Source: Escherichia phage Fostie. From it: DNA of 38,253 nt. The DNA lies in sequence record PP925832.1; one strand, given 5' to 3'. Below the pieces are notes generated by a model, which ran no database searches, had not been told where the DNA came from, and saw only the letters and a program-made list of their open reading frames with translations. Positions 27,741-27,786 of the stretch are shown piece after piece. The position numbers and the translations under genes were made by a program. Each line of letters starts with the position of its first letter. The first letter of the stretch is position 1.

Positions 27741-27786
27741 AACAGGCACCTTTAAGCCTGTTCTTGTCCGGGTACCTTTAAACCCG
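27741..27786 (-). promoter_or_regulatory. Tandem stem-loops with identical 8-nt loops (candidate RNA/protein recognition element)
   Basis: Minus strand CGGGT-UUAAAGGU-ACCCG and AACAGGC-UUAAAGGU-GCCUGUU, 6 nt apart, just downstream of the cII-position ORF. Confidence 0.4.

Follow-up and report, generated by a model that had tools for sequence, protein, structure and literature searches.

A conserved pair of hairpins with an invariant UUAAAGG loop in the early transcript of Escherichia phage Fostie and related prophages

Two adjacent stem-loops with identical 8-nt loops lie 6 nt apart on the minus strand, the sense strand of the early-right operon, at 27741-27786 of the 38,253-nucleotide stretch of Escherichia phage Fostie DNA that was analysed (PP925832.1; hereafter the window), with the coordinates, strand and spacing given for them in the original prediction, and comparison with related loci supports them as real and conserved in structure, strand, invariant loop and fixed place after the gene for the small protein p852. 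The hairpins appear to have the job of showing the heptamer UUAAAGG single-stranded on a C-R-G-G-Y / R-C-C-Y-G stem, and the sequence comparisons described below narrow their putative function to that of a loop-specific recognition element of the replication module. The reading that we favour, with a probability of roughly 0.35, is that they would form a loop-specific binding site on the pR transcript that controls whether this transcript survives, or carries on across the leader to the genes for helicase, primase and Q.

The window is that of a lambdoid temperate phage or prophage of Enterobacterales, and the relatives of Fostie include Hendrixvirinae. The cI gene, encoding an S24 peptidase domain, is on the plus strand (28373-29080), and the minus strand carries all genes from cro to Q: a lambda-type cro (PF09048, 28279-28073), p852 (98 aa, phrog_852, 28089-27793), an SF2 helicase (ResIII / Helicase_C, 27365-25746), which is the next real cistron after the hairpins, a P4-type Toprim/Zn-ribbon primase (25749-24778) and Q (24781-23999), beyond which lies a pR'/tR'-like pair. 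These gene calls agree with the placement of the element, in the original prediction, downstream of the cro/cII-position genes and upstream of the replication genes. From a candidate pR, called by consensus scan only (TTGAAA-17-TACTAT, 28321-28349, minus strand), transcription would run through cro, p852 and the hairpins into the replication genes. Scanning of the minus strand from pR to Q for intrinsic terminators gave no call, the first strong one being tR'-like (23894-23873). No N-family protein was matched among the 17 early-region ORFs scanned, including those of the leftward operon, which runs to the integrase gene (33641-34651), so the earlier statement that no N-like protein is evident stands for these ORFs; among the same ORFs no separate replication initiator gene was evident. 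The leftward operon also encodes, downstream of cI, a 130-aa protein with an S24 peptidase domain only and no HTH (29596-29988, plus strand; phrog_6201, 'CI-like repressor').

Read along the minus strand, the order is CCUGAUUGUUG, hairpin 1, the linker GACAAG, hairpin 2 and CAGG, with hairpin 1 beginning 7 nt past the p852 stop and the helicase gene ~375 nt further on. Hairpin 1 (CGGGU-UUAAAGGU-ACCCG, 27786-27769) is defined by sequence and minimum-free-energy (MFE) fold as a 5-bp stem with an 8-nt loop, formed by CGGGT (27786-27782), the loop TTAAAGGT (27781-27774) and ACCCG (27773-27769); this stem has 5 bp in Fostie and 7 bp in most relatives. Hairpin 2 (GAACAGGC-UUAAAGGU-GCCUGUUC, 27763-27740) has an 8-bp stem and a loop identical to that of hairpin 1, and consists of a core at 27762-27741, made up of AACAGGC (27762-27756), the loop TTAAAGGT (27755-27748) and GCCTGTT (27747-27741), and one further G-C pair at 27763/27740. 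With hairpin 2 taken as its 8-bp or its 7-bp form, the two hairpins are 5-6 nt apart, and their loop-to-loop spacing of 26 nt is out of helical phase. Both hairpins are present in the minimum-free-energy structure (RNAfold, -28.8 kcal/mol, z = -2.46). In 200 first-order Markov simulations of the window, no two neighbouring hairpins shared an identical 8-nt loop on stems of 5 bp or more. The octamer TTAAAGGT occurs four times in the window against 0.78 expected, the two copies described here being the only ones in hairpin loops, and no other hairpin with a TTAAAGG loop was found in the window on either strand, the leftward operon included.

The loop (UUAAAGGN) is A-rich, and seven of its 8 nt are invariant; it starts with UUAA, which matches the YUNR U-turn-type motif, a motif so short and common that the match is weak evidence. 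A U-run is absent after either hairpin, GACAAG following hairpin 1 and AGGUUGG hairpin 2, and a consensus scan called neither a promoter nor a terminator near them. Searching 27000-28600 against Rfam 15 gave no match at the hairpins, with two chance-level matches elsewhere in that interval (cmscan, E ≤10). No tRNA or tmRNA was predicted anywhere in the window by ARAGORN. No relevant literature on the hairpin loop sequence or on the replication module was found. A third hairpin, CAGGAACG-UCAUCG-CGUUCCUG (27794-27815, minus strand), spans the last p852 codons and the stop; it covaries in part (GGAUC/GAUCC in Klebsiella phages) and is broken in other relatives.

The region is common to Salmonella Fels-1, Yersinia YP3, Cronobacter ENT39118, E. 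coli phi467 and several Klebsiella phages, and was also found in many viral contigs and in prophages of 15 genomes (Enterobacter, Citrobacter, Pseudocitrobacter, Trabulsiella, Pantoea and others), the hairpins being kept in more than 140 related prophage loci. Counting of loop motifs just after p852 in 177 loci with a p852 relative gave two motifs in 109, one in 39, three in 4 and none in 25, with one mismatch to TTAAAGG tolerated, so that true hairpins are slightly overstated; the third motif in each of the 4 three-motif loci lies elsewhere in the spacer and has one mismatch. Fels-1, phi467 and the Klebsiella group have one hairpin each, and its stem is longer. In 64 loci the p852 stop precedes loop 1 by 14 nt, and in 21 it is provided by the UAA within that loop; in these latter loci (21 of 90 related loci, e.g. 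L011, L023 and L047), the UGA of p852 is mutated and the frame runs on to the loop 1 UAA, where a terminating ribosome would sit on the hairpin. Two further observations concern individual relatives: in a Citrobacter prophage (L215, 1340-1371), sequences diverge right after loop 1, marking a rearrangement breakpoint inside hairpin 1, and in some others (L216, L260) the Chi sequence GCTGGTGG is directly 3' of hairpin 2.

Comparison of 70 distinct hairpin units, one or two per phage, showed the same bases at loop positions 1-7 (UUAAAGG) in at least 69 of them, and variation at position 8 (58 U, 9 C, 2 A and 1 G). The inner 5-bp stems of the same units came in 31 different combinations with pairing retained (for example CAGGC/GCCUG, CAGGU/ACCUG, CUGAC/GUCAG, AUGAC/GUCAU, CGGGU/ACCCG and CGGGC/GCCCG), which all conform to the C-R-G-G-Y / R-C-C-Y-G consensus. 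The stem of hairpin 2 is swapped under an unchanged loop to CAGGU/ACCUG in L004, to CUGAC/GUCAG in L216 and L222, and to AUGAC/GUCAU in L263, and hairpin 1 covaries from U-A to C-G, with G·U intermediates. On 40 distinct tandem sequences, 89% of cells were paired, compared with 25-53% when the 3' partner was slid by 1-3 columns, none of 500 shuffles reached the observed values, and six pairs had double compensatory changes, counts of covariation that are inflated by shared ancestry, the compared relatives being fairly close and all from Enterobacterales. Unguided RNAalifold on 21 diverse sequences recovered both hairpins, with compensatory change in 11 pairs. Conservation and covariation in related phages had been proposed as the check on the original prediction, and both are clear, the one in the invariant loop and the other in the compensatory stems. 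An invariant loop on drifting, always-paired stems is the signature of a loop that is specifically read. Among the non-Watson-Crick stem cells of the 70 units, G·U numbered 43 and A·C 7, which indicates that the sense strand is selected to fold, either as RNA or as the non-template DNA strand.

A double-stranded DNA operator, in which the inverted repeats would be bound by a dimeric DNA-binding protein, is highly unlikely: the hyphenated dyad is suggestive of one, and GTAC palindromes (other dyads) are close by, but an excess of G·U over A·C is meaningless for duplex DNA, and arms that vary with compensation around an invariant, asymmetric 8-bp centre are the opposite of what arm-reading dimers would give rise to.

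The protein encoded just upstream of the hairpins was previously unannotated. It belongs to phrog_852 (160 clusters at 50% identity) and had no matches in Pfam, NCBIfam or PDB; no kinship to lambda N, lambda cII or P4 Cnr was found, the p852 profile scoring an hhalign probability of 0.1 against lambda N. It is predicted to be helical, with a long helix that bears R58, K59, R62, R64, R70, R72 and R76, and its conserved Arg-rich helix reads RKENRARHEANxRLRLFVRN. The helicase gene always follows p852 homologues, and the cI/cro genes and operators upstream differ or are unrelated. A context-free pattern scan of viral contigs, for two copies of TTAAAGGT 10-30 nt apart, produced matches that were mostly due to chance and were filtered for real hairpins; six true tandem-hairpin matches were present among those listed, and 6/6 were linked to p852 and the helicase. 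An unrelated single hairpin, at locus L100, lies in apparent coding sequence and was dismissed. Because the hairpins persist across unrelated cI/cro types, they are part of the replication module and not of the immunity module, and since this linkage is independent of immunity type, immunity proteins are excluded as hairpin partners.

All loci with hairpins encode a p852 of at least ~59% identity to the window protein. Where p852 is at 56% identity or less, in sister clades (L223-L257), a UGUGUUCCUGGCAAGUG-like box after the stop takes the place of the hairpins, and deeper in the spacers of these clades are direct repeats of (A/G)GGTCAA or GATGTTTAGA, which are iteron-like, or GTAC palindromes. 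The UGUGUUCCUGGCAAGUG-like box and the direct repeats seem to be specificity elements of the same module, as alternatives to the hairpins. Hairpin-less sister clades (e.g. P0125, L247-L250) conserve the Arg-rich motif of p852 just as well, and since it is present where the hairpins are not, the motif alone cannot specify the UUAAAGG loop.

Between the hairpins and the helicase gene is a conserved, untranslated leader of ~375 nt (27366-27739, minus strand), characterised by alignment of 7 phages, composition profile and motif counts, with no credible ORF. Directly 3' of the hairpins is a 22-nt, G-free, C/A-rich stretch (CAACCCACUAACUCAAUUCCUU, 27732-27711, minus strand), rut-like in composition only, with the equivalent ACCAACUGACCCAACUCCUCAUAU in most relatives. 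Two 18-bp palindromes of the form GTACTAG-N4-6-TAGTAC (27706-27689 and 27556-27539) lie ~150 bp apart, and because they are retained in relatives with unrelated cI/cro genes and operators, they probably bind a protein of the replication module. The immunity operators of the window (oR, 28308-28329; oL, 29140-29203) contain TAGTACT seven times against 1.4 expected, half-sites that resemble the spacer palindromes by coincidence or cross-talk. About 90 nt downstream of the hairpins is a G-rich tract on the sense (minus) strand (GGGGAAGAGGGAAAGGGGGGUAAGGGGGGAUUGGGUGUAGGGGUAGGAAUAGGG, 27680-27627, GC skew -0.88). Of 135 hairpin-bearing loci, 115 have a canonical G4-type motif downstream of p852 on the sense strand, and none has one on the antisense strand. 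The length of the G-runs varies from 6 to 9 between close relatives, which indicates that the tract is not coding; a small ORF within it (MGKRERGVRGDWV) was rejected, as the varying G-runs shift its frame among close relatives. The tract could favour R-loop or G-quadruplex formation. No convincing promoter was found inside the p852-helicase spacer, by scan or by eye.

Close to the helicase gene, the leader contains a 19-codon upstream ORF (MKTTSQNYYLITAGSAQCS, 27415-27356, minus strand), whose stop overlaps the helicase ATG at 27365, and before it a conserved hairpin, GGCUGG...CCAGCC (27461-27432), with CCUUU in its loop in the window and in some relatives. Their arrangement points to a helicase that is translationally coupled or controlled by its leader; the stretch that holds them (27356-27461) is missing from the Klebsiella relatives. 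In Fels-1, phi467 and KPP5665-2, the spacer has a 122-aa ORF (STM0899; L001, 3490-3858), and window sequence at ~27470-27535 aligns only to the two ends of this ORF, which points to a deletion remnant of it.

In the mechanism that we favour, one or two copies of the hairpin would be sites for a trans-acting, loop-specific factor, placed where the transcript exits the last translated regulatory cistron and enters the ~375-nt untranslated leader. The binder would most likely be a protein of the replication module, and the leading candidate is p852, which is Arg-rich, predicted to be helical and encoded just upstream. The effect would most likely follow a nut-like logic, with survival of the pR transcript, or its continuation through the ribosome-free leader, depending on binding; for example, binding may protect the transcript from Rho or nucleases, and hence allow arrival at the replication genes and Q. 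Both the binder and the effect of binding are inferred. Since no intrinsic terminator was called between pR and Q, antitermination would need Rho-dependent events, deduced here from composition alone. The original prediction had also offered recognition by an RNA- or DNA-binding protein of the phage; a site of that kind fits the invariant loop and covarying stems, and the binder itself is a candidate only.

The resemblance to lambda nutR is one of position and outline, in that both are short hairpins with a conserved A-rich loop, both follow directly on an early pR cistron and precede the replication genes and Q, and both adjoin a C/A-rich, G-poor stretch, lambda boxB lying between rutA and rutB after cro. 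Unlike nutR, the Fostie element has no boxA, no nutL counterpart and no N homologue; its loop is 8 nt and not a GNRA-like pentaloop, it often occurs as two tandem copies, and it is tied to the replication module, whereas nutR is tied to the immunity region. A search for boxA (CGCUCUUA / GCUCUUUAA) with one mismatch allowed gave chance-level matches, with none on the minus strand near 27700-27900, in agreement with the earlier remark that no boxA-like sequence lies nearby on the sense strand. The likeness to nut in role that had been suggested therefore does not extend to family membership, which fails on boxA, leftward copy, relation to N and loop type, and the lack of a leftward second site, of boxA and of an intrinsic terminator call between pR and Q also counts against a nut-like reading of function.

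A precedent in gene arrangement is mEp021, in which Gp17, an N-like ARM antiterminator, is encoded in the rightward operon beside one of its own RNA sites (PMC11893012). Gp17 can be likened to p852 by description, as an Arg-rich protein of the rightward operon next to an RNA site. The mEp021 sites nutR1, nutR2 and nutL keep boxA and an A-rich boxB, the leftward copy included, and the ARM of Gp17 is N-terminal (PMC11893012), whereas the Fostie hairpins have neither boxA nor a leftward copy and the Arg-rich helix of p852 is internal. In HK022, as here, two neighbouring stem-loops are found in the early transcript of a lambdoid phage without N; in put, these bind the beta' subunit of RNA polymerase directly, at its zinc-binding domain. 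The put RNAs measure ~70 nt and combine long bulged stems with a triplex and non-canonical pairs; both early operons have one (L and R), and conserved identical loops are not needed (PMC9378689). The Fostie hairpins, by contrast, are 18 and 24 nt long, with uninterrupted stems of 5-8 bp, at one locus. We therefore class the element as a conserved-loop hairpin in a phage early transcript, outside the nut and put families.

The strongest competitor to a protein-read site on the transcript, and in our view a possible but doubtful one, holds that the p852-helicase spacer is the phage origin and that the hairpins are a replication-origin or priming element. In one variant they would be the 5' handle of a pR-derived primer, or of R-loop RNA forming at the G-rich tract; in the other they would extrude from the non-template DNA strand once it is displaced, to be recognised by the helicase or primase in the manner of single-strand initiation signals. 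Inheritance of the hairpins with p852, helicase and primase whatever the immunity type suits this explanation, as do the lack of an evident separate initiator gene, the conserved 18-bp palindromes, the G-skewed tract and the sense-only G4-type motif of the spacer, and the iteron-like GGTCAA or GATGTTTAGA repeats of the sister clades. The strand asymmetry suits a non-template DNA strand as well as RNA, and G·T pairs are tolerated in single-stranded DNA too; at 9% of stem cells, however, their frequency is more typical of RNA hairpins than of DNA. Also against an origin are the position of the hairpins 5' of the G tract, and so outside an R-loop starting there, the out-of-phase loop spacing and the occurrence of a single hairpin in some phages.

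Two groups of known elements bear on this comparison. Transcript-primed origins include those of ColE1 (RNA II), the R-loops of T4 oriF/oriG and mitochondrial CSBII, and share with the Fostie region a promoter-driven transcript with structured hairpins and then a G-rich tract on a C-rich template, near replication genes. The hairpin loops of ColE1 are antisense targets, whereas an antisense RNA is not evident in the Fostie region, which is known here from sequence. Single-strand initiation signals, such as ssiA/ssiB of RSF1010 and G4 ori, act as single-stranded DNA and are read at the stem base and 3' flank. They resemble the Fostie hairpins in being strand-specific and located near an origin (here an origin-like spacer), next to a dedicated primase gene, and differ in that the conserved part of the Fostie hairpins is the loop and that their G·U frequency suggests RNA. 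A more specific proposal, which we consider a long shot, is that p852, hairpins, palindromes, G tract, helicase and primase form a self-contained module without a classical initiator, in which G-rich pR RNA would fire the origin through an R-loop or G-quadruplex hybrid with its C-rich template, the hairpins just upstream serving as a handle with which p852 or the helicase would capture this RNA.

A passive role as 3' stabiliser or processing barrier, by which the hairpins, once the leader had been cleaved, would shield the cro-p852 message from exonucleases working 3'-to-5', is unlikely. Their location suits such a barrier, with the last translated cistron immediately behind them and a long ribosome-free stretch ahead, and the stems are G+C-rich and conserved as structure; but the stems are short (5-8 bp), and any loop would do for a barrier, whereas here 7 of the 8 loop bases are practically invariant on drifting stems.

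The invariant loop also leaves room for an RNA partner, in which case the hairpins would, much as in the copy-number control of plasmids, make a kissing contact with a CCUUUAA-bearing RNA, be it a cis-antisense RNA or a second loop. The combination of invariant loop and variable stems suits antisense-controlled systems as well, UUAA fits YUNR, and CCUUU is displayed by the hairpin at 27461-27432 in the window and some relatives. That hairpin, however, is absent from Klebsiella phages that retain the UUAAAGG hairpin, no other exact complement is sensibly placed in the window, the consensus scan gave no promoter-like site on the plus strand near the hairpins, and the 43 G·U pairs would be A·C mismatches on the opposite strand. 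This explanation is accordingly rated as improbable. A put-like cis-acting RNA, binding RNA polymerase directly and conferring resistance to termination without any protein, would draw on the two adjacent stem-loops in an early transcript, the Hendrixvirinae among the relatives and the failure to find an N gene; it is very improbable, as short, perfect hairpins of 18-24 nt at one locus, reduced to a single hairpin in several clades (Fels-1, phi467, Klebsiella phages), stand against the ~70-nt, bulged, triplex-forming L and R copies of put (PMC9378689).

If the hairpins were a mere mRNA stabiliser, the element would be ordinary. If they are a protein-binding RNA site, they would be an uncatalogued RNA motif, absent from Rfam, and would give a first functional handle on the widespread, unannotated phrog_852 family and a handle on a helicase-primase module common in Enterobacterales prophages, including Fels-1. 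To our knowledge, the origin and regulation of this helicase-primase module are undescribed. If the module were fired by pR RNA, a single RNA element would tie origin firing to early transcription and to read-through into the replication genes, which would represent a new kind of phage origin control together with a new RNA-protein recognition pair. With an RNA of 18-24 nt and one invariant heptamer, the element offers a compact test case for how pR transcription crosses a long untranslated leader in lambdoid phages without N, and for how replication starts in such modules.
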